Source: Spirochaetota bacterium (lineage in GTDB: Bacteria; Spirochaetota; UBA12135; COTS27; CAXSBA01). Taken from it: 64,000 nucleotides of DNA. Where the stretch lies: assembly GCA_965224715.1 (NCBI GenBank), contig OZ245054.1, forward strand, positions 906,411-970,410. Direction: 5' to 3'. Shown here piece by piece: positions 10,004-53,521 of the stretch. A program made the translations under genes and the position numbers. The notes under the pieces are model-generated. The model was not told where the DNA came from. It saw only the letters and a list, made by a program, of their open reading frames with translations, and made no database searches. Positions within the stretch are counted from its first letter, which is position 1. Every line of letters begins with the position of its first letter.

Positions 10004-10273
10004 TTAAATGACGAGCTTAGGACTAGCAGAAAAAACCAACTTTTTTCTTTCAGGAAGTTTTTTAATTTCCCCAGTAAAAGGTAGTTTCATTTCCCTAGCA
10101 GCTAAGGTTCGACATTTAAAAGTTCCAAAACCCCTGATCCGAATATCAGAGCCATTTTTAATTTGTTTATGAATTTCCTCAAAAGTTGTTTCAATAATGA
10201 TGCGAACTTTATCGAGTTTTTCTTCATAGGGTAAATTGGAATTTACTTCTTTAATAAATTCATTAAATTGCAT
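10004..10273 (-). CDS. HU/IHF-family nucleoid DNA-binding protein
   Basis: IRGFGTFKCRTLAAREMKLPFTGE fits the HU arm motif GFGxF...R.GRNP.TGE. Confidence 0.7.
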   Translation of the reverse strand: MQFNEFIKEVNSNLPYEEKLDKVRIIIETTFEEIHKQIKNGSDIRIRGFGTFKCRTLAAREMKLPFTGEIKKLPERKKLVFSASPKLVI

Positions 10274-10288: not shown

Positions 10289-10570
10289 TTAAGATTCAAT
10301 AGCATTTTTTTTAAATACCAATACTTTTTTCGTAATTTCAGATTTTTTGCGATTAACATTATTCTTCTTAATAACCCCTTTTTTGACAGCTTTATCAGCG
10401 TATTTATAAAAAAGACTTAATTCAGAATCAATTTTATCTATTTTATTTTCTTCGACCGACTTAACTATTTTTTTCAATTGGGTACGCATTCGAGAAAGGA
10501 CCGCTCGATTATCTACTGATTTTTTCAGCGACTTTCTTAAATTCTTTTTATTAGATTTAATGTTTGGCAA
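10289..10570 (-). CDS. rpsT: 30S ribosomal protein S20
   Basis: MPNIKSNKKNLRKSLKKSVDNRAVLSRMRTQLKK matches the S20 N-terminus (MANIKSAKKR...). Confidence 0.8.
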   Translation of the reverse strand: MPNIKSNKKNLRKSLKKSVDNRAVLSRMRTQLKKIVKSVEENKIDKIDSELSLFYKYADKAVKKGVIKKNNVNRKKSEITKKVLVFKKNAIES

Positions 10571-10731: not shown

Positions 10732-11049
10732 ATGAAAGAAGAAAATATGGAAGTAAAAGATAAAGAAATTTACGGTCAAACAATCAAAGCTAGAGGAAGA
10801 AGATATTATTTTGATATTAAAGAAAACCGAAATGGTGATCGATATGTTACTATTTCGGAGACACAACCGAAAAATAATCAGTTTAAACGCATGAGAATTA
10901 TGGTTTTTGGTGAATATTTAGATGATTTTATTGTTGGATTACAAGATTTGAAAAGTAAAATTAATATTTCTGAAGAAGAGGGCACTAGATTGGTTGCAGA
11001 ATTAAAAAAATCTCAAACTCAGCAAGATGACCAAAAACTGACCAAATAA
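10732..11049 (+). CDS. DUF3276 / bacterial Pur-alpha-like nucleic-acid-binding protein
   Basis: YYFDIKENRNGDRYVTISE...RIMVFGEYLDDFIVGLQDL resembles PUR repeats. Homologues are common in spirochaetes. Confidence 0.45.
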   Translation: MKEENMEVKDKEIYGQTIKARGRRYYFDIKENRNGDRYVTISETQPKNNQFKRMRIMVFGEYLDDFIVGLQDLKSKINISEEEGTRLVAELKKSQTQQDDQKLTK

Positions 11050-11080: not shown

Positions 11081-11153
11081 GGGCCACTAGCTCAGTTGGT
11101 AGAGCAACTCCCTTTTAAGGAGTAGGTCGATGGTTCGAATCCATCGTGGCTCA
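11081..11153 (+). tRNA. tRNA-Lys (anticodon TTT)
   Basis: Cloverleaf: acceptor gggccac/gtggctc, anticodon stem actcc/ggagt with loop cTTTTaa, T-loop ggttcgaatcc. Confidence 0.85.
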
Positions 11154-11157
11154 TTAT

Positions 11158-11229
11158 GTCTCCATCGTCTAGTGGTTAGGACACCAGGTTTTCATCCTGG
11201 CAACCGGGGTTCGATTCCCCGTGGAGATG
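11158..11229 (+). tRNA. tRNA-Glu (anticodon TTC)
   Basis: gtctccatcgtctagtggttaggacaccaggttTTCatcctgg...ggggttcgattcccc. G1-U72 wobble at the acceptor end. Confidence 0.75.
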
Positions 11230-11260
11230 CTTTTCCCCCTGATTTTTTTTCTCTTGTATT

Positions 11261-12271
11261 ATGAATTTATCTACATCTAAACAATTTCTAAGAGATATTC
11301 TTCCTCAAGTTAGTCGAACTTTTGCCCTAAATATTCGAGTTCTTAATGAAATAGATTATAACTTTATTGGTAGTACCTACCTTATTTGTCGGTTTATTGA
11401 CACAATTGAAGATTCTCCCATCTTAACCAATAACCAAAAAATAAATATATTACAAGAATTTGCTCGAATTTTTCAAGTAACATTCCAATCAAAAGATTTT
11501 TTAAAAATAATTGATCAATGTAAAAATATCTCCCACTATCCACCTGAAAATGAGTTAATGGAACGTTTTGATGAAGTTATTTTTCTTTTCAATTCTTTTC
11601 CCCAGATTTATCATGACATTTCCAAAGATATGATTATCGAAATGGCCTTGGGAATGGCTGAATTTACAGAAAAATACTCCAAACAAGATAGGAAAATTCT
11701 TAAAAACATGGAGGAGTTGGAAAAATATTGCTATTATGTAGCTGGAACTGTAGGAATAATCTTAACCCGTCTTTTTACTCTGAAAATAAATTCAAAAACT
11801 AAGAAAAAAATTCTTAATAAATTTACCAATGATTTTGGACTTTGCCTTCAAATGACTAATATTGTTAAAGATGTCAATGATGATAAAAAAAGAGGCTGGT
11901 CTTATGTTCCCCAAACTGTTTTAGAAGAAGCAGGGGTTACAGTTAAAGAATTTTATAACGGATTAAAACCACAGCAAATAAAATCAATTCAAGAGATTTT
12001 AATCAGAAAAATTGAAATTTATATTAAAAATTCATTAGTTTACTGTCAAAACATACCTATATATCTAGGAAAATATCGTTTATTTTGTCTTATACCTCTT
12101 TTTTTATCGATTAAAACTGTTTATTTCTTAAAGAATCGAAAGTCTAGTCAAATTCATATAAAAAAAATAAGTAAAAAAAATCTATTTTCTACTATTTGTA
12201 TAGTTTATTTAATATTCCCATTCAACATTTTAATTAAAATTTACTTTTTTTTAATAAAAAAAACTAATTAA
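11261..12271 (+). CDS. Squalene synthase (farnesyl-diphosphate farnesyltransferase, eukaryotic/FDFT1-like class)
   Basis: VSRTFALNIRVL...YLICRFIDTIEDS (cf. SRSFAAVI...YLVLRALDTLEDD), YCYYVAGTVGIILTRLF, LQMTNIVKDVNDDKKRGWSYVPQ. Confidence 0.75.
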   Translation: MNLSTSKQFLRDILPQVSRTFALNIRVLNEIDYNFIGSTYLICRFIDTIEDSPILTNNQKINILQEFARIFQVTFQSKDFLKIIDQCKNISHYPPENELMERFDEVIFLFNSFPQIYHDISKDMIIEMALGMAEFTEKYSKQDRKILKNMEELEKYCYYVAGTVGIILTRLFTLKINSKTKKKILNKFTNDFGLCLQMTNIVKDVNDDKKRGWSYVPQTVLEEAGVTVKEFYNGLKPQQIKSIQEILIRKIEIYIKNSLVYCQNIPIYLGKYRLFCLIPLFLSIKTVYFLKNRKSSQIHIKKISKKNLFSTICIVYLIFPFNILIKIYFFLIKKTN

Positions 12272-19499: not shown

Positions 19500-19940
19500 C
19501 TTACCTCCAAATATAATTACATGGTAATTATATCATACTCATTTTTTTTGTAACAAAATCTTGTAAAAATTTATTACTTTATACAGATTTAACGATTATT
19601 CTGGACAGATATCATTTTATTAAAATTTATAAGCAAAATATCCATAGTTTGAGTAATAAAAGTTATAAAAACATTTCGTTTTCTTTACTCAAAAAAAAGA
19701 TAAAAACATGATAAAATTATTCTCGGTGAATTCTGAATTATTTTACTTTTTTACTTTTATGAATTTTGCTTTAATAAATTTGTTCAGTTTTTGTTTGAAT
19801 TAAAGGTTTAAATTATAAATTCAATTATGGTATAATTAATAATTACTGAGAATATTATTTATAATAGTTATTGTAAATTTTTATTAATAGATACCCTTCA
19901 AATTAAAAGTAAGGTTGTTTTAATAAAAATGAGGTAATGA

Positions 19941-21359
19941 ATGAAAGGCTTGAAATCAAAAAAGAATCTTAATTTAAATAAGTCCTATGATGTATGTATT
20001 GTAGGAGCTGGGGTTGCAGGAACGGTTTTGGCAGCTTTACTATCACGTCTTAACTACCGGATTTTGATTATCGAAAAAAGTTTCAGAGAACAGGAAAAGA
20101 TTATTGGTGAACTTCTTCAGCCAGGAGGAGTGGAGTGTTTAAAAAGTATGGGACTTGGCTTTCTTCTCGAAGAAATTGATGCTCAAGAGGTTGAAGGCTA
20201 TACCCTTTTTCTTAAGGATGAGTTTATCTCTATACCTTATAATCAGGAGAATAATTTGCAAGCCTATGCCTTTAGGAATGTCAAATTTGTTACTCGAGCC
20301 AGACAATATATTAGTACGCTCCCTCAAGTTGATCTGATAGAAGGGAATGTCTGTGATGTCATTATTGAAAATAAAACAATTAAGGGAGTTGTTTATCAAT
20401 ACCAAAATAGAACCATGCATGCCCATGCTAATCTTACCTTTGTCTGTGAAGGGGCGATGCCTAAACTGAAATTAAAAAAAAATCTGGCTTGTGAGAGTAG
20501 AAAAAAGAGCAGTTATTTTGTTGGAACATTGTTGACCGATTGTGAACTTCCAGTAGCTAAAAATGGACATGTCATTTTAACTGGAGAATATCCTATCCTT
20601 ATTTATCCAATTTCTTCTAGTGAGACACGAATTTTAATCGATTTCCCAAAAACTCCTAAAATGGGTCAACAGATGCGAGATCACCTAAAGAGCCAAATCC
20701 GCCCCCATTTACCCGAAACCGTTCTGTCAGCTTTTGATAAAGCTGTGGATAAAGGTAAATTTATAGGAATGCCTAACCAGAATCTTCGTACTTATCCACT
20801 TAAGAATAAGAAAAATGTGGTATTAATAGGTGATAGTTTTAATATGAGGCATCCTCTTACTGGTGGGGGGATGTCGGCAGTATTCAATGATATTAGGAAT
20901 ATTTTTACCTTGATAGCTGGATATTCTGATTTAAGCGATCAAAATAATATTGATAGAATCATAGCTCGTTATTATGACATTAGAGTTCGGGATGTAGCTA
21001 ATATTAATATTCTAGCGGATTCTCTTTATCGAGCTACCCTTGATCCCTATCTTAAAATAGCTAGCTTTAATTATTTAAAACAAGGTAACCATGATGCTAT
21101 CCGAATTTTGGCTGGGATTGATAAAAGTAAATTCAATTTAGTTAAACACTTTGCTAATGTTGTCTCAAATGGAATAAATAAACTTCAGCTTAATAATAGA
21201 AAGAAGATTCAACTACTAGCCAAAGCAAGTGGGATAGTTATCCCGCTTCTTCTACAAGAGGGGAACACAAAGTTTCATAGATGGGGCAAACAATTATTGG
21301 ATAGATTTTTCCCTCCTCACATTAATGCAAAAGCATCTACCCAAAAAAATTCCCCCTGA
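19941..21359 (+). CDS. Squalene monooxygenase (squalene epoxidase, ERG1/SQLE-like, FAD-dependent)
   Basis: YDVCIVGAGVAGTVLAALLS (GxGxxG), IGELLQPGGVECLKSMGL, EIDAQEVEGYTLF and GDSFNMRHPLTGGGMSAVFNDI all parallel eukaryotic SQLE motifs. Confidence 0.8.
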   Translation: MKGLKSKKNLNLNKSYDVCIVGAGVAGTVLAALLSRLNYRILIIEKSFREQEKIIGELLQPGGVECLKSMGLGFLLEEIDAQEVEGYTLFLKDEFISIPYNQENNLQAYAFRNVKFVTRARQYISTLPQVDLIEGNVCDVIIENKTIKGVVYQYQNRTMHAHANLTFVCEGAMPKLKLKKNLACESRKKSSYFVGTLLTDCELPVAKNGHVILTGEYPILIYPISSSETRILIDFPKTPKMGQQMRDHLKSQIRPHLPETVLSAFDKAVDKGKFIGMPNQNLRTYPLKNKKNVVLIGDSFNMRHPLTGGGMSAVFNDIRNIFTLIAGYSDLSDQNNIDRIIARYYDIRVRDVANINILADSLYRATLDPYLKIASFNYLKQGNHDAIRILAGIDKSKFNLVKHFANVVSNGINKLQLNNRKKIQLLAKASGIVIPLLLQEGNTKFHRWGKQLLDRFFPPHINAKASTQKNSP

Positions 21360-23598
21360 ACTTTTCATTAAGAGTTGGAAGTTATTTACTGAAAATGGTC
21401 GTCAATATTGGCGGTATTTACCGACTCAAGATCTTCGTTCTGTATTCAAGAAAAAACGACTTCAAGAAGAAGAAAAATTAAAAGCTCTTTCTCAAGCATT
21501 TGTATATGATAAACATAAATTGCATCATGCTTGTGATTTAGTCTTTCGAAAGTCAAGAAAATTCCACTATCAAACGAAACTCCGTCATCGTTTTCTCTCA
21601 AAAAAATCATCAAATAAGGATTCTGATCATTTAACTAATTTAGTGACGGACTCATTGGTGAGGGGATGGGATTATTTTACATCATTACAAACACAAGAAG
21701 GTCATTTCCCTGGGGACTATGGAGGACCGCTTTTTCTTATGTCTAATTTAGCTCTTCTCTCTTTCACCACCAGCTTTGATTTGGGAAAGCCTCAGGTTAC
21801 CTTGATGAAACGTTATATCTTTAACCATCAAAATCCTGATGGAGGGTGGGGTCTTCATATTGAAGGAGAATCGATCATGTTTACTACCGTAGTTAATTAC
21901 ATTACACTCCGGCTTTGGGGGGAAGATCCTTCTAAGTTAGAGGATGCCCGAAAATGGATCAGGAAGAATGGGGGAGCGGGAGATATCCCCTCATGGGGAA
22001 AATATTTTCTAGCTATGGTGGGGTTATATGAATGGAAAGGCATTGATTCCCTTTCTCCAGAAAGCTGGCTTTTTCCCCGATCTTTTATTTTTTCTCCTTA
22101 TCGTTTATGGTGTCATGCCCGGATGGTTTATCTTCCTCTAAGTTATCTTTATGGGATTCGTTTTAAGCCGAGTAAGAAACAATTATCGATGCCGATCATC
22201 TCTCAGCTTAAAAAGGAAATTTATCTTGAAAACTATGACAGTATAAATTGGATAAAGTTAAGAAAACGATGTTGTCCTCGGGATGAATATTTTCCGGTTT
22301 CTAAAAGGTTTAAGTTATTATCTATGGTTTTGAATTTTTATGAAAAAATTCATCTCTCTTTTTTTCGCAAGAAAGCATTATTGATAATAAGCAAATATAT
22401 CGATAGTGAGGATATCCAAACGGACTTTATCAACATCGGCCCTATCAGTAAGGTGTATAATGCTTTGGTGATTTATTATCGTCTACAGAATGATCCCGCT
22501 AACCCTAAATTGCAACAGTCATGGAAAAGACATTGTGAAAGGATCCAAGATTATCTTTGGGTAGCTGAAGATGGCATGAAGATGAATGGATATAATGGCT
22601 CCCAGTTTTGGGATACCCTATTTACTGGGAAAGCTCTACTTGCCTTACCTAGGAATTTAAAAAAGTATTACCGTAAACCCATGAAACAAATTCAAAGGTT
22701 TTTAAATAATCATAGGCTTGATGAAGGGGGCTGGCCCTTTTCGACGAGACAGCATTCTTGGCCAATTTCAGATTGTAGTGCTGAGGGAGTGATTTATAGT
22801 TTGGCTTTTCATAGGCGAGGCGATATAGATGATTACTCTAGACTTACTAAAAGTGTTAATTTTATATTGGGATTACAAAATCCTGATGGAGGCTGGCCTT
22901 CTTATGAAGTGCAAGGTGGACCTGCTTGGTTAGAATGCCTCAATTCTTCCATGATTTTTGGAGATATTATGGTTGATTATTCTTATGTGGAATGTACTTC
23001 ATCAAATATCCAGGCCTTGGAAAAATTTCATAACTTTTACCCTGATTATCGGAATAAGGAAATTTGTTGTGCGTTAGACAGAGGAAGACAATTTATTATC
23101 TCTAAACAAAAACCCGATGGATCCTGGTATGGGTCATGGGGGATATGCTTTACTTATGGAATTTTTTTTGCGGTAAAAGGTTTAATCGGATTAGACAAAC
23201 CTGCAAGTCGAAAGGCTCTTGTAAGTTCAGCTAAATTTCTATTGAAAAATAGAAATTCTGACGGTAGTTGGGGAGAGTCTTACCTTTCCTCAAGTAAAAA
23301 GATTTATCACAGTACTTCCGGTCAAGCTGTACATACCGCATGGGCAACTCTTTCTCTTCTTCCTCTTATTGAAAAGGGTATCTGTGATGAGTCTTTAATA
23401 CTTGATGAACTTAAAGCTGCAGTAAAAAAGGGGATCGGTTTTCTTATAAATATTCAAAAGAGTGATGGGGATTGGCCACAACCCCATATTACCGGCGTTT
23501 TTAATCAAAACTGTATGATCACTTATACTAACTATCGGAATATTTTTCCTTTATGGGCTTTGGGAGTTTTTCTTGATAGATCAAGTAAGTTTTCATAG
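21325..23598 (+). CDS. Oxidosqualene cyclase (lanosterol/cycloartenol synthase-type triterpene cyclase)
   Basis: 757 aa. GRQYWRY near the N-terminus. MKMNGYNGSQFWDTLF (cf. LSS MKMQGTNGSQIWDTAF). ISDCSAEG (the OSC DCTAE catalytic Asp motif, not the SHC DxDDTA). QW repeats QNPDGGWG, QNPDGGWP, KQKPDGSWYGSWG, NRNSDGSWGES. ATG start overlaps the SQE stop by 35 nt. Confidence 0.85.
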   Translation: MQKHLPKKIPPELFIKSWKLFTENGRQYWRYLPTQDLRSVFKKKRLQEEEKLKALSQAFVYDKHKLHHACDLVFRKSRKFHYQTKLRHRFLSKKSSNKDSDHLTNLVTDSLVRGWDYFTSLQTQEGHFPGDYGGPLFLMSNLALLSFTTSFDLGKPQVTLMKRYIFNHQNPDGGWGLHIEGESIMFTTVVNYITLRLWGEDPSKLEDARKWIRKNGGAGDIPSWGKYFLAMVGLYEWKGIDSLSPESWLFPRSFIFSPYRLWCHARMVYLPLSYLYGIRFKPSKKQLSMPIISQLKKEIYLENYDSINWIKLRKRCCPRDEYFPVSKRFKLLSMVLNFYEKIHLSFFRKKALLIISKYIDSEDIQTDFINIGPISKVYNALVIYYRLQNDPANPKLQQSWKRHCERIQDYLWVAEDGMKMNGYNGSQFWDTLFTGKALLALPRNLKKYYRKPMKQIQRFLNNHRLDEGGWPFSTRQHSWPISDCSAEGVIYSLAFHRRGDIDDYSRLTKSVNFILGLQNPDGGWPSYEVQGGPAWLECLNSSMIFGDIMVDYSYVECTSSNIQALEKFHNFYPDYRNKEICCALDRGRQFIISKQKPDGSWYGSWGICFTYGIFFAVKGLIGLDKPASRKALVSSAKFLLKNRNSDGSWGESYLSSSKKIYHSTSGQAVHTAWATLSLLPLIEKGICDESLILDELKAAVKKGIGFLINIQKSDGDWPQPHITGVFNQNCMITYTNYRNIFPLWALGVFLDRSSKFS

Positions 23599-23631: not shown

Positions 23632-24480
23632 TTGGGTTTTCCTTACCAATTTATGACCTGTAAGGATAATCTCAGAAGCTTTGTTCAAAAAGATTTCGTT
23701 AAACAAAATCAATTTTATCCGAAAATAGAATTGAGAAATTATAATAGTCAAAAAATGCCTACATTTTTAAAAATCTGTGTTCCATTTATTATTTTACTTC
23801 TATTCCATTTTTTTTATTTAAATGGTAAGAAACTAATGAAAGATCAGGATATTTATCGATTGAAAAAAGTTTCTTTCATCGGAGTAGAGGACTCTGATCC
23901 CTATGAGATTATAGAAGGATTAGGTTTAGAAAAAGGGATCAATCTTCTTTTTCTTGATACTGAAGAACTTACTCAAAAGATTAAGGCCATACCCCGCTAT
24001 CGAGATGCTGAAGTGATCTTACAATATCCCGATACCCTGATTTTGAAATTAGAGGAGAAAAGAACGGAGTATATTGTTAAAGTTAATGGAATGATGTATT
24101 CTGTGGATGCTTCTGGTGAAGTTACAGAGAGAAGTCATGAGATCAAGAATTATGATTTTTTTTTTATTGAAGCTACTGACTTTCAAAATTTACAAGAAGT
24201 ATTGTCAAATAACAAATTTGAGAAGTTTATTCGATTGGCTCAAGATGTTCCTGGTAATGAAAAGAATATATTTCAATTATTTTCGGGAGTTGAGTTTAGT
24301 CGTTTCAATAAGGACTGGATTCTCCATGGACATAGCCGGGAAGTGAAGTTTAATATGGGAAAGGATCTTTCGTTGGATAAATTAAGGAAAACTCTTTATG
24401 CTTATATGTATGGGAAATATAAGGAAATTCCCGTCAAAAACGTATTTATTACAGAAGATTTGGTATATTTTAACCAATAA
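23632..24480 (+). CDS. ftsQ: Cell division protein FtsQ/DivIB (POTRA domain). The ORF-track start is TTG; the likely true start is ATG at 23758 (MPTFLKICVPF...)
   Basis: Single TM helix followed by a POTRA-like region (KVSFIGVEDSDPYEIIEGLGLEKGINLLFLDTEELTQKIKAIPRYRDAEVILQYPDTLILKLEEK). Positioned immediately before ftsA-ftsZ. Confidence 0.6.
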   Translation: MGFPYQFMTCKDNLRSFVQKDFVKQNQFYPKIELRNYNSQKMPTFLKICVPFIILLLFHFFYLNGKKLMKDQDIYRLKKVSFIGVEDSDPYEIIEGLGLEKGINLLFLDTEELTQKIKAIPRYRDAEVILQYPDTLILKLEEKRTEYIVKVNGMMYSVDASGEVTERSHEIKNYDFFFIEATDFQNLQEVLSNNKFEKFIRLAQDVPGNEKNIFQLFSGVEFSRFNKDWILHGHSREVKFNMGKDLSLDKLRKTLYAYMYGKYKEIPVKNVFITEDLVYFNQ

Positions 24481-24553
24481 AGCCATATTTTTAGAAAATA
24501 TAGCTTTATTGGTGTCTTTTTTATTTTATAATAAAGAATCAAACTAATGGAAA

Positions 24554-25801
24554 ATGAATTCATTGTCAACTATTAACGTTATTGATATTGGCAGTAGTAA
24601 GGTTCAGTGTTTGATCACTCAGCCTAATCTTGATAACGGAGAACTGGAAGTCATTGGTTATGCTCACCAGGAGTCTTCTATCCACTTACTCAATCAAGGG
24701 AATATTATTAATATCGATAAAACGGCTAAAATAATTCGTGAAGTAGTGGCTAGTGCTGAAATGATGGCGGGAGTAGAAGTAGGGGATATTTTTACTAACA
24801 TTCCTGGGATTCTTTGTCATGGGATAAGTTCCCATGGTCTCATTACAGTTACCCCTAAGGAAGGAGGGGAGAAAAAAGTTGCTTTGTCCGATTTGGAAAG
24901 AGTGATAGATATTGCAGAGTCCACTCCTATTCCTCGTGATCACATCATTATTCATAGTGTGCCAGTTGAGTTCAAAGTTGATGGGATTAGAGTGGAAGAA
25001 GATCCTTTGGGTATGGTTGGAATGCGTTTGGAGACACAGGTTTATCTTCTTACCTGTCCTAAAGGAACCTTAGATAATCTTCATAAGGTTGTGCAAACTG
25101 CAGGGTATGAACTGCGCGATATTATGTCAGAAAGTATTACTTTTGTTGAGACGGTTTTGTCAGAGGAAGAGAAAAAGCTTGGTAGTTTGGTGATCGATAT
25201 TGGCAGTCAGTTTACTAATGCTGTACTTTATTCTGAAAATGGGGTGCATTTATCTTTTGCAATTCCTTTGGGGGGAGATAGTCTTACTAGGGACTTATCA
25301 GTTGGAATCAATACCGGTTTAACGGAAGCTGAGGAAATTAAAAAGCAACATGGGGTACTAGATTATAAAATGGTGGATGAAGACAAGATGATTACAGTTA
25401 AGTTGATCGCATACCAGAAAAAGACTCATATCTCTCAGCGAGCGGTTTTTCAGATTATTGAAGCCAGAATGATTGAAATATTAGATCTTATTAAGAAGGA
25501 GCTTAAAAGCCGTCAGGCAACTTTTCCAGTAGGCTGTGGTATTGTCGTTACTGGAGGTGGTGCAATGATGCCCGGTATAGATACTATTGTGCGAAATGCT
25601 TTTAATCTATCAGTTCGAGTTGGATATCCTTTGGGAGTGAAGGGATTGGACTCCCAAATGATTAGTCCAAATTACTCTACATCATTGGGTATGGCTCATA
25701 TAGTTAGTTCCAGAGATACGATGCCTGGGAAAGGTAAAATTTCTATAAAAGATGGAATATTAAAAAGAATTGAAAGTTCAATAAAAAATTTTTTTACATA
25801 G
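24554..25801 (+). CDS. ftsA: Cell division protein FtsA
   Basis: Actin-like ATPase: VIDIGSSKVQCLI...LVIDIGSQFTNAVLY...GIVVTGGGAMMPG. Directly precedes ftsZ. Confidence 0.85.
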   Translation: MNSLSTINVIDIGSSKVQCLITQPNLDNGELEVIGYAHQESSIHLLNQGNIINIDKTAKIIREVVASAEMMAGVEVGDIFTNIPGILCHGISSHGLITVTPKEGGEKKVALSDLERVIDIAESTPIPRDHIIIHSVPVEFKVDGIRVEEDPLGMVGMRLETQVYLLTCPKGTLDNLHKVVQTAGYELRDIMSESITFVETVLSEEEKKLGSLVIDIGSQFTNAVLYSENGVHLSFAIPLGGDSLTRDLSVGINTGLTEAEEIKKQHGVLDYKMVDEDKMITVKLIAYQKKTHISQRAVFQIIEARMIEILDLIKKELKSRQATFPVGCGIVVTGGGAMMPGIDTIVRNAFNLSVRVGYPLGVKGLDSQMISPNYSTSLGMAHIVSSRDTMPGKGKISIKDGILKRIESSIKNFFT

Positions 25802-25844
25802 TTAAAATATAAGTTAAATTAAGACAGTTTTATAGGGAGGGTCT

Positions 25845-27236
25845 ATGTCTTTTCAAATTTTAGAAAACGAACAAGGGAATAACAATCAAAGTCCCACTAT
25901 CATAAAAGTGGTTGGAGTTGGTGGGGGTGGCTGTAATGCCATCAACCGAATGATTGAAAATGGAATGAGTGGAGTGGAGTTTGTTGCGATCAACTCTGAT
26001 CTTCAAGCTCTAGCTCATTCCAAAGCCAAGACTAAACTTCAAATTGGGGTCAAAACCACTAGAGGATTAGGTGCCGGCGCTAATCCCGATGTTGGTTATT
26101 TAGCTGCAGAGGAACAGGAAAGTGATATTTTGGATATTCTTAAAGGGGCTCATATGGTATTCATCACTGCTGGTATGGGTGGAGGTACAGGAACTGGAGC
26201 GGCTCCGGTGGTGGCTAAATTAGCCAAGAGTTTGGATGCTCTTACAGTAGCAGTGGTTACTAAACCTTTTCTTTTTGAAAAAAAGAAAAGAATGGATCAT
26301 GCTATGTCTGGCATTGCTTCCCTTAGGGAGAATGTGGATACCATCATTGTGATCCCCAATCAAAATTTGCTTAATATTAATGATAAAAACATGTCCATTG
26401 GAGAGTCCTTTAGAATGGCGGACACTATTCTTATGGATGGGGTTCGGGGGATTACTGATCTAGTGGTAAATTCCGGTTTTATCAATGTTGATTTTGCCGA
26501 TGTTCGTACCGTGATGGAGAACCAAGGTAACGCAGTGATGTGTTCGAAAGTTTTTGATTCCCGCTTGCCGGCAGAGGAAGTGGTTAAAGAAATAGCTCAT
26601 AACCCCCTTATCGAAGGTGGAAATATTCAAGGAGCTAAGGGTCTTCTTATGAATTTAATTCATGGAAAAGATACACCTATTCAAGATGCTGTAAAGATTA
26701 TTGATTCTATCAGTAAACTCCTCGATTCTGAGGCAGCTTGTATTCATGGCTTTTTCTGTGATCCTAAATTAGAACGTGATATTAAAATCACTATCATTGC
26801 GACTGGGTTCATCTCAAATTTGGACCAGGAAGGGAGACTTGAAGAAAAAAATGAATCTATAATCTCCCAAGAAAGTTCTTCTAGAGCCAAGAGTTCTTCT
26901 GGGAATAATATTTCACAAGATTCAGACCAAAGTGAAAGTGTAAAAAGTATTTTGGAACAGCAGCCAGTAAACTTTAATACTGATAACGATCAAGAAGATC
27001 CCTTAGAGTGGGAGAAACGAAGAGTTTATACTTATGCTGCTAATCCTAACGCACCTACTCAAAACCTAAATGCCTCTTTGGTTAATCAAGCTGGCTATCA
27101 ACGTCATGCTCATTCGACTATAGAAGAACCGGTACATAAATTTGAAGAGTTAAATCAACAAACAATATCAGGTTATGATAAGGATGATCTCAGCATACCG
27201 ACTTTTATGCGATTAGGTAGGAAGATAGATTATTAA
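25845..27236 (+). CDS. ftsZ: Cell division GTPase FtsZ
   Basis: [17 protein letters not shown]...[19 protein letters not shown] (tubulin signature GGGTGTG)...[11 protein letters not shown]. Confidence 0.9.
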
Positions 27237-35903: not shown

Positions 35904-37178
35904 TTACAGTTTTTGTTCCCAATTGATACCGTCTGAGGATTTCCATACATCATTATAGCGAGAGCTGCCATCAATTCCACCGATGAGGTATAGTTCATTG
36001 TTAAACACGACTACACTGTGAGCTTGTCTTCCGGAAAACTGAGCTTGGTTAGTCACTTCTGTCCAATCGATACCGTCTGAGGATTTCCATACATCGTTTT
36101 TGAAAGAGCCATCATTTCCAACGATGAGGTATAGTTCATTGTTAAACTTGACTACACTGTGATCGTATCTTCCGGTAAACTGAGCGTTACCAGTCACTTC
36201 TGTCCAATCGATACCGTCTGAGGATTTCCATACATCGTTATAGCGAGTGTTTCCGCCCCCAAATCCACCGATGAGGTATAGTTCATTGTTAAACTCTACT
36301 ACACGGTGACTGTTTCTTTTGGGAAACTGAGCGTTACCAGTCACTTCTGTCCAATCGATACCGTCTGAGGATTTCCATACATCGTTTCTGAAAGAGCCTC
36401 TGCTATGCCCACCGATGAGGTATAGTTCATTGTTAAACTCTACTACACTGGGAGTATTTCTTTCGGAAAACTTAGCTTGAGTGGTAGTCACTTCTGTCCA
36501 GGTAGCACCGTCCGATGATTTCCATATATCATTTAGTTGATTGAAGCCACTACTTTCTCCTCCAATGAGATATAGTTCATTGCTAAACTTGACTAAACTG
36601 TGAAGGTATCTTCCGGAAAACTGAGCATTACCAGTAACTTCTGTCCAGGTAGCACCGTCTGAGGATTTCCATACATCGTTTAGTAGATTGTTGCCGGTAT
36701 CTTGTCCTCCGATGAGGTAGAGTTCATCGTTAAGTTTTACTACACTGTGAGAGTATCTTGCGGAAAAATGATTTACTTTTATGGAAACAGTTCCTGTAAC
36801 CGACCCCTTGTATTGGGGATTATTTTCGGTTACGGTTGCGGTTATGGTGTAAGTATTGGAAAAACCCGGAGCATTGGTTGTTACTGTGATGGTGCCGTTT
36901 GTTAGATTCAGGGTAACTCCATTTGGTAAGGGAGGCTCTACACTGTAGCTGTAGTCGCTATTAGTAGTAGCATCAGAGGGAGTTATGTTGGTTAGCTTAG
37001 CTGTCCTGCTGACTTCGGTTCCGTAATTGACTTGGATATTCTGATAGCTGATGCTACCTGTTATTTGTGTTTTGCCATCTGAGGAATCCGTAGAATTCGT
37101 CTCGGTGCTGCATCCTAAAGTTAGTATAGTCAGGATGGCTGTGAGAGCGATTGTTAATGAGATTTTTATTTTTTTCAT
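35904..37178 (-). CDS. Kelch-repeat beta-propeller lipoprotein (N-terminal Ig-like segment plus 6 Kelch-like blades)
   Basis: MKKIKISLTIALTAILTILTLGCS lipobox, then ~47-aa units repeated 6 times: NNELYLIGG...NDVWKSSDG(A/I)(T/D)WTEVT. Confidence 0.6.
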   Translation of the reverse strand: MKKIKISLTIALTAILTILTLGCSTETNSTDSSDGKTQITGSISYQNIQVNYGTEVSRTAKLTNITPSDATTNSDYSYSVEPPLPNGVTLNLTNGTITVTTNAPGFSNTYTITATVTENNPQYKGSVTGTVSIKVNHFSARYSHSVVKLNDELYLIGGQDTGNNLLNDVWKSSDGATWTEVTGNAQFSGRYLHSLVKFSNELYLIGGESSGFNQLNDIWKSSDGATWTEVTTTQAKFSERNTPSVVEFNNELYLIGGHSRGSFRNDVWKSSDGIDWTEVTGNAQFPKRNSHRVVEFNNELYLIGGFGGGNTRYNDVWKSSDGIDWTEVTGNAQFTGRYDHSVVKFNNELYLIVGNDGSFKNDVWKSSDGIDWTEVTNQAQFSGRQAHSVVVFNNELYLIGGIDGSSRYNDVWKSSDGINWEQKL

Positions 37179-37418: not shown

Positions 37419-38801
37419 TTACAGTTTTTGTTCCCAGTCAATACCGTTTGAGGATTTCCATACATCGTTTAGTAGATTGTTGCCGGCCTCTTGTCCACCG
37501 ATGAGGTATAATTCATTATTAAACACGGTTGCACTGTGACCCCGTCTTGCGGAAAACTGAGCTTGACTAGTAACTTCTGTCCAATCGATACCGTCTGAGG
37601 ATTTCCATACATCATTTAGTCGATTGGTGCCATCAAATCCACCGATGAGGTATAGTTCATTATTAAACTCGACTACACTGTGATAGGATCTTTCGGAAAA
37701 CTTAGCTTGAGTGGTAGTCACTTCTGTCCAGGTAGCACTGTCTGAGGATTTCCATATATCGTTTTTGTAAGGGGTTGCGGATGTTCCGCCCTCATATCCA
37801 CCGAAGAGATATAGTTCATTGTTAAACACGACTACATTGTGACTACTTCTTGCGGAAAACTGAGCTTGATTAGTAACTTCTGTCCAAGTAGCACCGTCCG
37901 GTGATTTCCATACATCGTTTTTGTAAGTGATGCCACTATATCCACCGATGAGGTATAGTTCATTGTTAAACACGACTACATTGTGACTATTTCTTGCGGA
38001 AAACTGAGCTTGATTAGTAACTTCTGTCCAAGTAGCACCGTCCGGTGATTTCCATACATCGTTTAGTTGATTGTTGCCGGTATCTTGTCCTCCGATGAGG
38101 TATAGTTCATTATTAAACTTGGTTACATAAGCCCGTCTTGTGGGAAACTGAACTTGATCAGTAACTTTTGTCCAGGTAGCACCGTCCGGTGATTTCCACA
38201 CATCGTTTAGTAGATTGTCGCCGGCCTCTTGTCCTCCGATGAGGTATAATTCATTATTAAGTTCTACTACACTGTGGCCACCTCTTATAGAAAAATGATT
38301 TACTTTTATGGAAACAGTTCCTGTAACCGACCCCTTGTATTGAGGATCATTTTCGGTTACGGTTGCGGTTATGGTGTAAGTGTTGGAAAAACCCGGAGCA
38401 TTGTTTGCTACTGTGATGGTACCGTCTGATGGATTCAGGGTAACTCCATTTGGTAAGGTGGGCTCTACACTGTAGAGGTAGTCGCTATCGATAGCATTAG
38501 AGGGAGTCATATTGGTCAGCTTAGCAGTACTGCTGTCTGTGTTTCCGTAATCGACCTGGATATTCTGATAGCTGATGCTACCTGTTATTTGTGTTTTGTC
38601 AATTGAAGAGTCTGTTTCGGAGTTGCATCCTAAAGTTAATATAGTCAGGATGACCGTGAGAGTGATTGTCATGAGATATCTGAGCCGTGAGCTTTTGTTT
38701 AGATGGATTGAGGGAGAGGGGGGAGGTATTTTGCTTGAGGGAGCGATTAACTCTGGGGTTTTAGTTTGCTGTAATTTTAGTTTTGTTTTTAATTTTTTCA
38801 T
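37419..38801 (-). CDS. Kelch-repeat beta-propeller lipoprotein, paralog of 35904..37178, with a Pro-rich pre-lipobox leader
   Basis: MKKLKTKLKLQQTKTPELIAPSSKIPPPSPSIHLNKSSRLRYLMTITLTVILTILTLGCNS, then the same Ig-like segment (TYTITATVTENDPQYKGSVTGTVSIKVNHF) and 6 Kelch-like repeats. Confidence 0.6.
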   Translation of the reverse strand: MKKLKTKLKLQQTKTPELIAPSSKIPPPSPSIHLNKSSRLRYLMTITLTVILTILTLGCNSETDSSIDKTQITGSISYQNIQVDYGNTDSSTAKLTNMTPSNAIDSDYLYSVEPTLPNGVTLNPSDGTITVANNAPGFSNTYTITATVTENDPQYKGSVTGTVSIKVNHFSIRGGHSVVELNNELYLIGGQEAGDNLLNDVWKSPDGATWTKVTDQVQFPTRRAYVTKFNNELYLIGGQDTGNNQLNDVWKSPDGATWTEVTNQAQFSARNSHNVVVFNNELYLIGGYSGITYKNDVWKSPDGATWTEVTNQAQFSARSSHNVVVFNNELYLFGGYEGGTSATPYKNDIWKSSDSATWTEVTTTQAKFSERSYHSVVEFNNELYLIGGFDGTNRLNDVWKSSDGIDWTEVTSQAQFSARRGHSATVFNNELYLIGGQEAGNNLLNDVWKSSNGIDWEQKL

Positions 38802-39078: not shown

Positions 39079-42048
39079 ATGAATCATTTAGAGCGATTAA
39101 ACCAACAATACCAGGAAACTGTAAGTAAGTGTAATGAATGCCGTCCTATAAGGAAGTCTAATCAATTTTATGGGGTAGGCCCGATCACCAATTTGGCTCT
39201 TGATGAGATGGATGGTCGAATGAAAAAATTAGAATTCGAAAAGTGGGTAGAGGAGAATTACCTAAAATACGATGACAAAGGAAATCTCATCGGGAATTTT
39301 ACTGTATCCGAACTCAATCGGAGTATGCACAGGGGATATCCTGCCGACAAAATTTTATTGGATATGGTGAGAGGAATTCATAGCTATTTTGAATTTCCCA
39401 AAAAAAACAAAATGGCTATTGGGCTTGGTGGGGGACATAGTGGCTTCACTGTGGCTGCTATGCATCTTATGAACGCTAATGACGAAAAGCAAATCGTCTT
39501 TGTGGACACTCCTAAGCCTGAATCAGAATTGGCATCAGCCGGTGGTTTTTTTAGACAATCCTGGGGCACCCAACTCATGGAAATGCAAAAATATGCCAAA
39601 AAGGGAAATACTGAAAGGATACTGTTTGCCAACAGTGAAGGAACGATCCCACCTGCACGGGAATTAAAGAACAAAGGGGTAAAATTATTTTTTGGAGTTG
39701 GGCACGAAACCACCGGTGCCACAACCTATACCGAAAAAGAAATCGAAAATTTGTTGGAATGGATAGAGGATAATCTGGCAGAACATCATGCGGTAATTGA
39801 TGCTACCTCTTTATTAGGCTCAATGGTATGGAGCAACAAAGTAATCAAACGGCTTTTGGATCGATGCAATATGTTTATGCCTTTCCAAAAAGCTATCGGA
39901 GGTGTGTCTGGTTACTTCAGTTTAGTATTGACCCCAGAAACATTAGCATTAATTGAGAGAAACTTGTCTAATCCATCGTGGGCTGTTCCCCGGCAATTAA
40001 AATTAACACCACCCGATAATCCCAAAAAGCCTCTTTCCGGAACCTACTCAACTAAGATGGGACCTATTTATGATCCGGTAAACGATAGAATGCAGGGTGG
40101 AATCATTAACACCTTCAGTAATTTAGCCCTTGCAGAAACTACATTTGCGATAATCCAGAGTAAGAAAGTCATTGGACCTGTTTCTAAAATGAACGAACGA
40201 TCTTTAAAAAACAGAGCACTTGTTGATAAATGGATTGTCGAAAACGAACTTTTTGAGCATGGGGTAACTACCCCCGAATCCCGTGGGTCTGCGGTTACTT
40301 TATTAAAAGTGAATGACCCTGAAATAACCGACCCAACCATTCACGCCGATATTATTCAAAAAGCCAAACAAATCCTCAGTTATGAAGGGATCACCCATTC
40401 AGACGGTAATCACGAACCCGGACTAGATGCAGCTAGGTATATTAATGCTTTCCCGGGTACTCCAGGAGATTTTCGAGCTTGGATAGGGGGTATCCGTAGT
40501 GAAGATGAAATTAAAACCTTTTTGGAGAATTTAAAGTATGCCTACTTTAAAGCTAAGTCGATTTATCTGGAGGAACAATTAGCAAAAGCTGGAAAAAAAA
40601 TTACCGATCATAATCCATCGAAAGAGACAACTTCCGGAAACAATCCAGAAAAAACATATAAAGTTCTAATCGCTGACTTGGTTGGTCTTAAATTAAATGA
40701 AAACGGACAGCCCGACTGTTCAGAATTAAAACAATATATTGAGGAAAAAGAAGGACGGTTTCACCTTGGCTGTGCCACAGATCATTTGAATCCAGAAAAA
40801 GGGAAGATTCATTTTTATTACTTATCGGATTTAAGCAGGGAGGAAGCAATTCTAAAAGAAACTGAAGCCGGAAAATACGATGCTTTGATAGCTACATCCA
40901 CAAAAATATCGGCAGAATGCAAATTTCCTCTAGGTGGGGTAAGAATTGGAGTGAGCACTGTAAATATGGGCTCAGTTAGTTGGGGTGGTGGAAGTGGTAC
41001 AGGTGGCGAAGCCCCACTTATGAACACTCCTGGACTTAATGGGGGTGTTGCCGCTCATGTTGCTTTCAAAGCTTTACTGAAAGTTCGTTCCGATTTAAAA
41101 TATTCAGAGATACATCAACAGATTATAGCTGGTAACTTCAATGCTGGGAAACATCTTAAAGACTACTCTTATACCCAAATTGAGGGGAAAAAGATGGCCG
41201 TCCTCGGATATGGTAATGTTGGTCGAGAAATGGCTAAACTTGCCTCAGCTTTCAAAATGAATGTGATTGTTTACGCACGACCCATACATCGGGAATGGAT
41301 TGAATCGGAGGGATACGAATACGCTGAAACTGTTTTAGTCGCTGCTACCCATGCCGATGTTCTTTCCTCCCACCTTGGATTGGGGAAACTGGATGCTGCT
41401 ACAGGTAATTTTTCTAATGCAGAGATAATTAATTCCCAAATCCTTTCGGCTATGAATGATGGCGGTGTTTTGATTCATTATGATCACGGAGAACTTGTTG
41501 AGGTCAATGCTCTTGAGAAAGCACTCACTAGTGGAAAACTCTCCCATGTGGCTATCGATGCTGACTTTTTCATTAAGCCGGATAAAAGCCTATCCGGTCA
41601 TCTTGCTCTTTATAGAAAACTCCTGGATCAGTATCCCGATAAATTAGAGTTGCTTTCCCATGCAGTTTTAGACACTGAGCATGCCTCCCGAGTAGAAGGA
41701 GCTAAACAGGCGGTTGATCAAATTATGGATTGTATTCGCACTAAGACGGTTGTAAACCTTGTCGGTGATATGCCACAAGGCTATGTCAACGGGGGGAGTA
41801 AGTCGCTATTGAATATGGGCAAAGCAACCCCGACTGACTTCAAACGACTATCCGATGATGAGTTAAAAAAAATCCGAAAGCTCACAGAAGGTATTTACGC
41901 TTTTTGGAGTTCGATGGAATCGATGAAAGATACAGCTTCAAGAACATCAATTGTTAAAAAATATGCTAAACAGGCAATTCTCGATTCCAATACTTTGGCT
42001 AGCCAACTCAGAAAGTTTGGCCTTACCGGTCCTTTTATTCAGGAATAA
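39079..42048 (+). CDS. Fusion protein: N-terminal phosphoserine-aminotransferase-like (class V aminotransferase, SerC-like) domain plus C-terminal D-2-hydroxyacid dehydrogenase (SerA/PdxB-like) domains
   Basis: N-terminus: KMAIGLGGGHSGFTVAAMHLM (cf. SerC [21 protein letters not shown]), GVGHETTGAT (cf. CPNETIDG), FQKAIGG (PLP-Lys region AQKNIG). C-terminus: KYDALIATSTKISAECKFPLGGVRIGVSTVNMGSV (SerA substrate domain) and KKMAVLGYGNVGREMAKLA (NAD GxGxxG). Confidence 0.5.
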   Translation: MNHLERLNQQYQETVSKCNECRPIRKSNQFYGVGPITNLALDEMDGRMKKLEFEKWVEENYLKYDDKGNLIGNFTVSELNRSMHRGYPADKILLDMVRGIHSYFEFPKKNKMAIGLGGGHSGFTVAAMHLMNANDEKQIVFVDTPKPESELASAGGFFRQSWGTQLMEMQKYAKKGNTERILFANSEGTIPPARELKNKGVKLFFGVGHETTGATTYTEKEIENLLEWIEDNLAEHHAVIDATSLLGSMVWSNKVIKRLLDRCNMFMPFQKAIGGVSGYFSLVLTPETLALIERNLSNPSWAVPRQLKLTPPDNPKKPLSGTYSTKMGPIYDPVNDRMQGGIINTFSNLALAETTFAIIQSKKVIGPVSKMNERSLKNRALVDKWIVENELFEHGVTTPESRGSAVTLLKVNDPEITDPTIHADIIQKAKQILSYEGITHSDGNHEPGLDAARYINAFPGTPGDFRAWIGGIRSEDEIKTFLENLKYAYFKAKSIYLEEQLAKAGKKITDHNPSKETTSGNNPEKTYKVLIADLVGLKLNENGQPDCSELKQYIEEKEGRFHLGCATDHLNPEKGKIHFYYLSDLSREEAILKETEAGKYDALIATSTKISAECKFPLGGVRIGVSTVNMGSVSWGGGSGTGGEAPLMNTPGLNGGVAAHVAFKALLKVRSDLKYSEIHQQIIAGNFNAGKHLKDYSYTQIEGKKMAVLGYGNVGREMAKLASAFKMNVIVYARPIHREWIESEGYEYAETVLVAATHADVLSSHLGLGKLDAATGNFSNAEIINSQILSAMNDGGVLIHYDHGELVEVNALEKALTSGKLSHVAIDADFFIKPDKSLSGHLALYRKLLDQYPDKLELLSHAVLDTEHASRVEGAKQAVDQIMDCIRTKTVVNLVGDMPQGYVNGGSKSLLNMGKATPTDFKRLSDDELKKIRKLTEGIYAFWSSMESMKDTASRTSIVKKYAKQAILDSNTLASQLRKFGLTGPFIQE

Positions 42049-47891: not shown

Positions 47892-48563
47892 ATGAAAAAA
47901 AAAATCTATGCCGCTTGGTTTTCCGGTAAGGAAAAATCGGCGGTTTTTTATGATAGTTGGGAAGCCTGTAAGCCTCAAGTGGAAGGGGTTTCCGGTATCC
48001 GTTATCGGGGTTTCCTAGACCGAAAACATGCTGAGGAATTTTTGGGAATCACCCCCTCCGATCACGGTCTGGATATTCCCGATGATACCTTGTTTCGAGA
48101 TAAAGAGGCTGAAAATACCCTCATTATTTATGTGGATGGCTCTTTTCAAGAGGGCACTCCTTATGCCGGATGGGCTTGGGTGGCTCTCACCCATCATAAT
48201 CAAAAAGATACCTTGGTTGGAGAAGATTATGGCATAACCGCAGAACCAGCCCTAAGCCGCAATATCGACGGGGAAATCACTGCAGTGTTGGAATCGGTGA
48301 AATGGGTGGAAAATTATCTGCCTACCCAAAAAAGTGATTGGCAAAAAACCAAGGTGGTTGTTCTCTATGACTATCAGGGAATAGAATCCTGGGCTATGGG
48401 GAAATGGAAAGCCAAAACCCTCATCAGTCAACATTACCAAAAAGAGATGATCCCTTACCGAAATTATATCCATTTCCACAAAGTTTCTGCTCATTCCGGT
48501 AAAAAATGGAATGAATACGTGGACCGACTGGCCAAGGAAGCAGTTTGGAAGTTGAAAGGATAG
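47892..48563 (+). CDS. rnhA: RNase H type 1 with N-terminal hybrid-binding (caulimovirus viroplasmin-like) domain
   Basis: HBD: KIYAAWFSGKEKSAVFYDSWEACKPQVEGVSGIRYRGFLDRKHAEEFL. RNase H core: IYVDGS...GEITAV...HKVSAHSGKKWNEYVDRLAKEA. Confidence 0.7.
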   Translation: MKKKIYAAWFSGKEKSAVFYDSWEACKPQVEGVSGIRYRGFLDRKHAEEFLGITPSDHGLDIPDDTLFRDKEAENTLIIYVDGSFQEGTPYAGWAWVALTHHNQKDTLVGEDYGITAEPALSRNIDGEITAVLESVKWVENYLPTQKSDWQKTKVVVLYDYQGIESWAMGKWKAKTLISQHYQKEMIPYRNYIHFHKVSAHSGKKWNEYVDRLAKEAVWKLKG

Positions 48564-52097: not shown

Positions 52098-52165
52098 CCA
52101 TAGCTTATCAAAGTCATTAAAGAACCGGGGAGTCAATATCGAGAATTTAACTACCTTTTTTATTA

Positions 52166-53077: not shown

Positions 53078-53400
53078 AAGAGGAGGATCGGTTTTTGCGT
53101 CTTTTTGTTTTTTTCGATTTACCGGTAGTGAGCGAACAGGAAAGAAGCCGAGCCGGTCGTTTCCGGCGACTACTCATTAAAAATGGTTTTTTTATGATAC
53201 AGTTCTCCATTTATTGTCGAATCTGTCGAGGACAGCAGAATGTGGATAAATATCGCAAACGGATCAAATCCTATCTCCCCCCTTACGGCAATATTCGCCT
53301 CATGCAGGTAACAGAGAAACAGTTTGAGAATATGGAAATTTTACTAGGAAAATTTAAAAAAGAAGAAAAATTTAAAGATAATCAACTTCTCCTTTTTTAA
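53074..53400 (+). CDS. cas2: Cas2
   Basis: LRLFVFFDLPVVSEQERSRAGRFRRLLIKNGFFMIQFSIY is a typical Cas2 N-terminal beta-alpha fold signature. 108 aa. Confidence 0.85.
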   Translation: MKEEDRFLRLFVFFDLPVVSEQERSRAGRFRRLLIKNGFFMIQFSIYCRICRGQQNVDKYRKRIKSYLPPYGNIRLMQVTEKQFENMEILLGKFKKEEKFKDNQLLLF

Positions 53401-53521
53401 AAAATTCAGAAAAAATTTGACTCAAGTCACAGTTTTAGCCCCTCCTCAATGTATTTTTTTGATCAAAAAAACCTTGATTTCCTAAGTTTTTCCATAGAAA
53501 ATCAGGGTTTTTTCGAGACGT

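Follow-up and report, generated by a model that had tools for sequence, protein, structure and literature searches.

A putative pathway of three genes leading from farnesyl diphosphate to a protosterol, most likely cycloartenol, in a deep-branching Spirochaetota genome

The spirochaetes known from culture and from disease (Borrelia, Brachyspira, Treponema) are textbook scavengers of sterols. A 64,000-nt stretch of contig OZ245054.1 (hereafter, the window), from a genome assigned to Spirochaetota, raises the question of whether a member of this phylum can build a sterol skeleton by itself. An original prediction, made from the DNA letters alone, had proposed that two overlapping open reading frames (ORFs) in the window encode a squalene epoxidase (SQE) and an oxidosqualene cyclase (OSC), and that a squalene synthase (SQS) is encoded nearby. 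We asked whether the three products are what they appear to be, what the cyclase would make, whether the genes belong to the spirochaete, and where they came from. We give a probability of roughly 0.7 to the explanation that this spirochaete has a working set of three genes with which it can turn farnesyl diphosphate (FPP) into a protosterol, most likely cycloartenol, and that it most likely obtained this module by horizontal transfer. Coordinates of the features discussed are given in Table 1.

The second ORF of the overlapping pair was compared with curated profiles, solved structures and known catalytic residues. The best-scoring profile was TIGR03463 (osq_cycl, 552.6 bits), and the product also scored 536.8 bits with TIGR01787, passing its cutoff of 322.7, whereas the hopene cyclase model TIGR01507 reached 203 bits against a cutoff of 431. 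Among PDB entries, human lanosterol synthase (1W6K; 508 bits, 3.8e-151, 40% identity) and a plant OSC (441 bits) were followed by squalene–hopene cyclase (SHC) at 134 bits (5e-38). In an AlphaFold2 model with a predicted local distance difference test score (pLDDT) of 85.2 and a predicted template-modelling score (pTM) of 0.88, Foldseek found human OSC (1w6j/1w6k) as the top match (E 2e-49, TM 0.82/0.85) and SHC at E 2e-25. Human residue numbering was transferred to the protein through a HMMER alignment, which was correct at 10/10 known human residues. The catalytic motif is ISDCSAEG, in which D483 corresponds to human D455, while C484 and C557 correspond to C456 and C533, and H264 and Y527 to H232 and Y503; W230 (W262 here), F444, W581, F696 and N697 (N727 here) of the human enzyme are also kept, and MKMNGYNGSQFWDT begins at residue 418. 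Across 82 other OSCs, 159 columns are at least 97% conserved, and the window protein retains 141 of them. Four canonical QW motifs (Q..DG.W at 169, 518, 595 and 711), which are also visible in the DNA as a family of 21-nt direct repeats, are accompanied by three degenerate ones. The α/α double-barrel fold and the QW repeats are shared with SHC (A. acidocaldarius enzyme, PDB 2SQC), but a search of the whole protein for D.DD[TS]A, the DxDDTA motif of hopene cyclases, found none, and an SHC identity was rejected on this absence together with the sub-cutoff hopene cyclase score and the poorer structural and fold matches. The features by which the cyclase had first been recognized (ISDCSAEG in place of DxDDTA, a length of 757 aa and four QW repeats) were thus borne out by the motif scan, the hidden Markov models, the PDB comparison and the fold. 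Judged by its sequence, the second ORF is an OSC and not a hopene cyclase. Its ATG at 21325 is the 5′-most start, and is the only ATG, GTG or TTG upstream of W18, an invariant residue of the OSC alignment.

The first ORF matched the Pfam SE domain (PF08491) nearly from end to end (profile positions 1–261 of 276; 2.7e-61, 207.5 bits against a cutoff of 20.1). Human SQLE (PDB 6C6N) was its sole strong solved relative (1.4e-62, 215 bits, 37% identity), and the N-terminal regulatory region of the human protein, a eukaryotic trait, is lacking in the window protein. All of the SQLE/ERG1 motifs that had been quoted for this ORF were present, namely GAGVAG at residue 22 (GxGxxG), GELLQPGG at 56 and GDSFNMRHPLTGGGM at 297 (the GD...MRHPLTGGGM motif). 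Generic FAD-binding families fitted weakly in the profile search, and UbiH, geranylgeranyl-reductase and hydroxylase identities were discarded, every such NCBIfam model scoring far under its cutoff. The possibility that the protein is a generic FAD monooxygenase of the UbiH type was ruled out by the SE domain, the NCBIfam scores and the SQLE motifs.

A squalene synthase was confirmed at the position where it had been predicted. The protein matched Pfam SQS_PSY at 1.9e-36, and its best NCBIfam model was TIGR01559 (squal_synth, 119 bits), ahead of HpnD (65) and CrtB (61); among solved structures, human SQS scored 86 bits and CrtM 46. The motifs DTIED, YCYYVAG, DVNDD and LFCLIP aligned with human DTLED, YCHYVAG, DYLED and NFCAIP, respectively. 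The FCxIP segment is specific to SQS and, according to mutagenesis of the rat and human enzymes, takes part in the second half-reaction, which depends on NADPH. These similarities identify the ORF as a probable one-step squalene synthase of divergent sequence. The gene begins 31 bp downstream of tRNA-Glu, in a tRNA-Lys/tRNA-Glu pair (region 11081–12271), and has the lowest GC content of the window (GC 0.257; GC at third codon positions, GC3, 0.187).

In the pathway that we propose, SQS would condense two molecules of FPP to squalene, and SQE, as an FAD- and O2-dependent monooxygenase, would convert squalene to (3S)-2,3-oxidosqualene. In the OSC, Asp483, activated by Cys484 and Cys557, would protonate the epoxide, and chair-boat-chair folding of the substrate would lead to the protosteryl cation, with closure of a cyclopropane ring to give cycloartenol as the most likely termination, given Tyr423, His477 and Ile481 at the specificity positions. 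The product would presumably serve in membrane ordering. Genes for later steps were sought among ORFs of at least 120 aa within the window, the remaining ~2.05 Mb of the genome lying outside this search, and no P450/CYP51, Rieske or short-chain dehydrogenase/reductase (SdmAB-like), sterol reductase, methyltransferase or sterol transport gene was found there. Three neighbours were considered and rejected: a nearby TolC/AcrB pair matched generic multidrug resistance-nodulation-division (RND) models alone and not a sterol or hopanoid exporter, a GFO/IDH/MocA protein proved to be an inositol dehydrogenase of the IolG type, and an aldo-keto reductase is a generic NADPH-dependent one. Since the window holds no gene for downstream tailoring, cycloartenol itself may be the end product, as in Fluviicola taffensis, where cycloartenol is the sole product, downstream tailoring genes are lacking, and SQS and SQE genes lie near the OSC gene Fluta_3214 (Wei et al. 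2016, PMC4919349).

The prediction of cycloartenol rests on three positions. The alignment check of T381, C449 and V453 that the original prediction had suggested was run, and the window OSC carries Y423, H477 and I481 at the positions equivalent to human 381, 449 and 453. T381, C or Q449 and V453 are typical of lanosterol synthases, and Y381, H449 and I453 of cycloartenol synthases, a rule that was derived from mutagenesis; in the bacteria analysed in the same work, I453 and cycloartenol went together without exception (Wei et al. 2016, PMC4919349). Human lanosterol synthase accordingly has T381/C449/V453 and DCTAE, whereas the window OSC has Y/H/I and DCSAE. The MKMxGxNGSQ segment had been taken as a sign of a lanosterol synthase, but this claim did not hold, since the segment carries Tyr and not Thr and, with H477 and I481, makes up the cycloartenol triad. 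Because of this triad, the predicted product is cycloartenol and not lanosterol, and we regard this as the probable outcome provided that the enzyme is active.

A functional module in which the cyclase deprotonates to lanosterol or parkeol, without cycloartenol, is unlikely, although several observations speak for it and against our prediction. The product rule is correlative and empirical (PMC4919349), and Val and Ile alternate at the 453-equivalent within one Fluviicola clade of Bacteroidota, in which a metagenome-assembled genome (MAG) labelled F. taffensis has Val. Tyr381 is near-universal in the bacterial OSCs of our set and does not discriminate the product in bacteria, because the lanosterol-type OSCs of Methylococcales (YQV/YNV) carry it too. 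Moreover, one metagenomic bacterial OSC yields lanosterol plus parkeol. Against these points stand the two positions that do discriminate, H449 and I453, both of which are of the cycloartenol type in the window OSC, and the observation that, in all of the bacteria that Wei et al. tested (PMC4919349), I453 correlated with cycloartenol.

It is more improbable still that the genes are maintained without forming a sterol route de novo, as would be the case with an SQE that is inactive or acts on another substrate and an OSC that uses oxidosqualene from a host or another epoxy-polyprenoid. The sequences themselves supply the arguments in its favour. The SQS score of 119 bits is under the TIGR01559 equivalog cutoff of 286.75, and the OSC score of 552.6 bits is under the curated TIGR03463 cutoff of 851. 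The SQE keeps 54 of 67 near-invariant columns and differs in 13, and its flavoprotein "DG" fingerprint is EG here (D170E, S174P, R179K; CEGAMPKLK compared with human ..ADGLFSKFR..; residues ~166–180, window 20436–20480); across 61 SQE homologs, conservation of the altered columns is 95% or higher. The lineage also appears to be host-associated. The D-to-E change is, however, a conservative one, and the SQE retains the full SE domain with its GxGxxG, GELLQPGG and GD motifs. Its gene is, furthermore, under stronger constraint than any other in the region (see below) and is tied to the OSC gene by an overlap that has been conserved. A squalene synthase bearing SQS-specific motifs has been retained alongside, and the identical three-gene set occurs in sterol-producing Bacteroidota. 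A working route from FPP remains our preferred explanation.

Some bacterial OSC homologs, among them ones from Bacteroidota, use oxidosqualene and fall within bacterial OSC clades, but form pentacyclic arborane triterpenols instead of sterols, as in the eudoraenol synthase of Eudoraea adriatica and the metagenomic isoarborinol cyclases. For eudoraenol production the substitutions W230S, H232Y and N697Y were reported to be sufficient, and Y503C occurs in isoarborinol cyclases (Banta et al. 2017, as related in PMC12324236). All four are absent from the window OSC, which has W262, H264, N727 and Y527 at these positions, making an arborane product (eudoraenol or isoarborinol) highly improbable on the substitutions described in that source.

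We then considered whether the module belongs to the genome in which it was found. The gene order dtd(−), 1078-aa ORF(−), 362-aa ORF(−), SQE, OSC, ftsQ, ftsA, ftsZ, fliD was the same in three independent assemblies, the NCBI contig and Logan contigs of runs SRR14371711 (38 kb) and SRR14371676 (22 kb). For SQE, the GC content was 0.356, GC3 0.273 and the codon-usage distance 0.075, and for OSC the values were 0.369, 0.302 and 0.066, all within the distribution of the host genes (mean distance 0.095). Ratios of non-synonymous to synonymous divergence (dN/dS), obtained by the Nei–Gojobori method against two sister genomes, were 0.03–0.08 for SQE, 0.15–0.18 for OSC and 0.115 for SQS, compared with 0.09–0.11 for FtsA and 0.10–0.19 for FtsZ, and the dS of the module (0.14–0.29) equalled that of the flanking genes. 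The low dN/dS, the dS shared with the flanks and the host-like codon usage indicate that the module is resident, vertically inherited within the clade and under purifying selection; such constraint points to genes in use. The idea of an assembly chimera, or of eukaryotic or Bacteroidota contaminant DNA joined to a spirochaete contig, could appeal to a module that is phylogenetically foreign to the phylum and missing from the relatives examined, but it is effectively refuted by junctions that are common on both sides to three assemblies from different runs, host-like codon usage and GC3, synonymous divergence equal to that of flanking housekeeping genes, intronless genes with a Shine–Dalgarno GAGG before SQE, and the lack of any mobile-element boundary in our search.

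The 35-nt overlap of the two ORFs was confirmed exactly in coordinates, strands and lengths. It joins different reading frames, was also called in two related assemblies (L001 and L087), and is 100% identical in both, junction included. In the 441-bp AT-rich region upstream of SQE, sigma-70-like sites were found at 19807–19836 (TTTAAA-18-TATAAT with TG) and 19836–19865, both as consensus matches only, and GAGG lies 7 nt before the SQE ATG at 19941. No Shine–Dalgarno sequence precedes the OSC ATG, no terminator was found between OSC and ftsQ, and no Rfam element was found in the module region. The start of ftsQ is probably near 23755, which leaves a gap of ~157 bp after OSC with promoter-like sites of its own. 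Co-transcription of SQE and OSC, one half of what had been claimed for this overlap, is well supported. Translational coupling, the other half, is no more than plausible, because the OSC ATG has no Shine–Dalgarno sequence and an overlap of 35 nt is long for termination–reinitiation. The ftsQAZ genes (23632–27236) are separated from the other dcw genes, and SQE and OSC occupy the slot directly upstream of ftsQ.

The identity of the host was examined through the other genes of the window, which forms part of a chromosome-sized contig of 2,112,975 bp. The ilvBN, dtd and ftsQAZ genes and the tRNA-Lys and tRNA-Glu genes were all found where they had been reported. The family matches that confirm the original prediction are strong (E 1e-47 to 1e-165) and lie far outside what chance would give. 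The window encodes a FlaB-type flagellin of 286 aa, whose named best matches were all from Spirochaetota, Treponema or Spirochaetia (56–64% identity) and whose best solved relatives include the FlaB1 filament 6pwb (269 bits); FliD is also encoded, and a TP0873_N-domain protein was called in the orthologous loci. The nearest named genome was COTS27 (AP019861.1), with a FlaB identity of 62–63%. COTS27 is a subcuticular "marine spirochete" symbiont of Acanthaster, the crown-of-thorns starfish (Wada et al. 2020, PMC7444263), and belongs to a proposed order of "marine spirochetes" near Brachyspirales. COTS27 and the window genome are both small and share an FtsJ–FlaB–OmpA neighbourhood, as well as a block consisting of a 362/421-aa protein, a 1078/1132-aa OmpA-domain protein and Dtd. 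The kinship is distant, as FtsA identity does not exceed 36% outside the window's own clade: the FtsA relatives, all on Logan contigs, were 97, 61 and 52% identical, and nothing else was above 36%. FtsA was discarded as a taxonomic marker, the matches outside the clade (36% or less) coming from mixed phyla. On these sequence comparisons the host is placed as a deep-branching and very isolated lineage of Spirochaetota, a distant relative of COTS27, and it looks host-associated. The flanking genes had been described as plainly bacterial and the contig as no eukaryotic contaminant, and FlaB, synteny with COTS27, codon usage and dN/dS concur with this description.

Where did the module come from? 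In a search of 5.8 billion clustered proteins, identities to the OSC above 45% were confined to the clade, and the best taxon-labelled genomes (40–44%) were those of Bacteroidota, Methylococcales/Methylothermaceae (Gammaproteobacteria) and one Chlorobiota MAG. The label "eukaryote-type" given to the module is accordingly true of the pathway, but not of the closest sequences, which are bacterial OSCs (Bacteroidota and Methylococcales) at 45% identity or less. Neighbour-joining trees of 85 and 203 sequences were built, the bootstrapped one being rooted with SHC and based on 727 columns. In 47% of the bootstrap replicates the OSC pair of the spirochaetes, on a long branch, fell outside the whole set of 80 bacterial OSCs that were sampled, and in 27% it fell outside bacteria plus human; it was never nested in a eukaryotic group. 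Addition of 118 unlabelled matches left this isolated position unchanged. The OSC/SHC phylogeny that had been suggested as a check was in this way carried out, and it singles out no donor of the OSC. SQE and SQS lean, with weak support (63%, and 54%/22%), to a Fluviicola/Crocinitomicaceae-like group of Bacteroidota.

Among relatives of the host, none of the three genes was found in the syntenic 20 kb of COTS27 (the flaB-to-dtd region), and no OSC on a 2.68-Mb contig was among the best 120 OSC matches. A more distant relative (L086, 4413–12527) keeps ftsQAZ-fliD-TP0873_N, but has murD-ftsW-murC-ddl, and not SQE-OSC, directly upstream of ftsQ. In another relative (L084, Logan SRR29726839, FtsA 61% identical), the sequence ends 270 bp upstream of ftsQ in non-coding DNA. 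A long imperfect inverted repeat, GGTTTAGCTTGGTTGGGGTT ... AACCCAACAAAGCTAAACC, occupies positions 1–170 of that contig and may be a terminator or an artefact of the assembly end. No att-like direct repeats, integrase or transposase were found around SQS, which lies by tRNA-Lys/Glu, or around SQE-OSC. As a whole, the most likely origin of the module is horizontal, from another bacterium. The simplest account is an ancient transfer between bacteria with complete amelioration since; the acquisition would predate the split among the three strains sampled, and the module would have been inherited vertically from then on. Two considerations weigh on the other side. The OSC tree is distance-based, covers a sample without Myxococcota, Planctomycetota and Cyanobacteria, and gives the placement a bootstrap value of 47%; and ancestral presence with loss in relatives could likewise account for the distribution.

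Comparison with known bacterial systems shows which parts of the module are familiar. The cycloartenol-synthase modules of Bacteroidota (e.g. F. taffensis Fluta_3214; PMC4919349) contain the same clustered trio of SQS, SQE and OSC, their OSC triad is mostly Y/H/I (40 of 51 loci), as in the window, and they provide the nearest sequences to the window SQE and SQS; identities are 40–45% for OSC, up to 43% for SQE and up to 31% for SQS. In Bacteroidota, however, SQS-SQE is usually divergent from or distant to OSC, whereas in the window SQE is followed, with the 35-nt overlap, by OSC and the SQS gene is 7.7 kb away, behind ilvBN-dtd, a layout seen in none of the 80 loci compared. Methylococcales also have an OSC and SQE pair on one strand, with catalytic residues identical to those of the window OSC, but in the reverse order (OSC, then SQE) and with a specificity of the lanosterol type (YQV/YNV). 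Their lanosterol pathway includes a CYP51–ferredoxin, SdmAB and BstABC transporters, none of which is in the window. Two oddities were seen among the Bacteroidota-type loci (L038 and L079). The MAG labelled F. taffensis has Val at the 453-equivalent of its OSC, whereas cycloartenol is the reported product of the type strain, and the chromosome labelled "Glaciecola amylolytica" carries a Fluviicola-type SQS-SQE...OSC locus that is nested in Bacteroidota, as could result from transfer or mislabelling.

The literature searched yielded no account of an OSC or SQE from Spirochaetota, and the SQS-SQE-OSC module is apparently unreported for this phylum. A 2025 survey of cyclases places Spirochaetota only in an uncharacterised "SHC-like" clade, and papers on COTS27, a sponge spirochaete and brittle-star symbionts make no mention of sterol or squalene. 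The original prediction knew of no sterol synthesis in spirochaetes. This view stands as far as OSC and SQE are concerned, but a CYP51–ferredoxin fusion has been tabulated for a "Spirochaeta sp." genome (Lamb et al. 2020). Because of this entry, and because potential steroid pathways are claimed for 14 bacterial phyla in Hoshino & Gaucher (2021), a spirochaete module is less surprising than had been held. The bacterial SQS-SQE-OSC module is itself already known, and the spirochaete case is incremental to its known patchy distribution.

If the module works as proposed, sterol synthesis has spread by bacterium-to-bacterium transfer more widely than culture-based surveys suggest, and a further non-eukaryotic source would have to be weighed when steranes or cyclopropyl-sterol derivatives serve as eukaryote biomarkers. 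With an OSC no more than 45% identical to other known sequences, the lineage would add a long isolated branch to reconstructions of OSC evolution. The genome is small and encodes eukaryote-like Kelch proteins, and a starfish symbiont is among the relatives of the lineage; these three features would make it a useful test case for the function of a bare protosterol, and it could serve to test whether symbionts supply sterols to invertebrate hosts. A bolder version, that the organism is an obligate or habitual marine-invertebrate associate like COTS27, that cycloartenol matters to the partnership and that the OSC perhaps represents an unsampled deep bacterial lineage, strikes us as doubtful, with odds well below even. 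Were it true, cycloartenol could be a precursor for a host whose own sterol synthesis is limited or atypical or, alternatively, part of a sterol-containing membrane suited to saponin-rich echinoderm tissue, and a deep OSC lineage would bear on where sterol cyclisation first arose.

Table 1. Location of the sterol module and of other features in the 64-kb window.
Feature	Position	Strand	Basis or remark
HU-like DNA-binding protein	10004-10273	-	between DUF445 and tRNAs
Ribosomal protein S20	10289-10570	-	between DUF445 and tRNAs
DUF3276/PUR-like nucleic-acid-binding protein	10732-11049	+	between DUF445 and tRNAs
Predicted squalene synthase (SQS), one-step FDFT1/ERG9-like, 336 aa, hydrophobic C-terminal tail	11261..12271	+	SQS_PSY, motifs
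AT-rich divergent intergenic region, 441 bp, likely module promoter and SQE ribosome-binding site	19500..19940	+	consensus matches
Squalene epoxidase/monooxygenase (SQE), 472 aa, ATG start	19941..21359	+	Pfam SE, human SQLE match
SQE 3′/OSC 5′ overlap, 35 nt, different frames, one transcription unit	21325..21359	+	ORF listing
Oxidosqualene cyclase (OSC), 757 aa, predicted cycloartenol synthase	21325..23598	+	HMM, PDB, fold, residues
Two tandem Kelch-repeat beta-propeller proteins	35904-37178, 37419-38801	-	GC 0.42 vs window ~0.36
989-aa ORF, phosphoserine-aminotransferase-like (residues 227-494) and phosphoglycerate-dehydrogenase-like 2-hydroxyacid dehydrogenase (647-895)	39079-42048	+	
RNase H1 with Cauli_VI-type (hybrid-binding) N-terminal domain, between RND pump genes and cas9	47892-48563	+	
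CRISPR-Cas type II locus, complete	48798-55405		Cas9 1099 aa (HNH + RuvC_III), Cas1, Cas2 (53074-53400)
CRISPR array, ~28 units of 66 bp (roughly 36-nt repeat + 30-nt spacer)	53521-55405		
534-aa ORF, N-terminal Rrf2-type regulator and periplasmic solute-binding domain, upstream of ABC permease/ATPase genes	58612-60216	-	

Several other genes of the window merit a brief remark. The Kelch proteins are eukaryote-like, and repeat proteins of this kind are frequent in symbionts. The 989-aa ORF may encode a fused SerC–SerA enzyme of the serine pathway, and the 534-aa ORF combining Rrf2-type and solute-binding domains is either an unusual fusion or possibly the result of a mis-called start. The type II locus of clustered regularly interspaced short palindromic repeats (CRISPR) and Cas genes is worthy of note in an apparently host-associated genome of 2.1 Mb.

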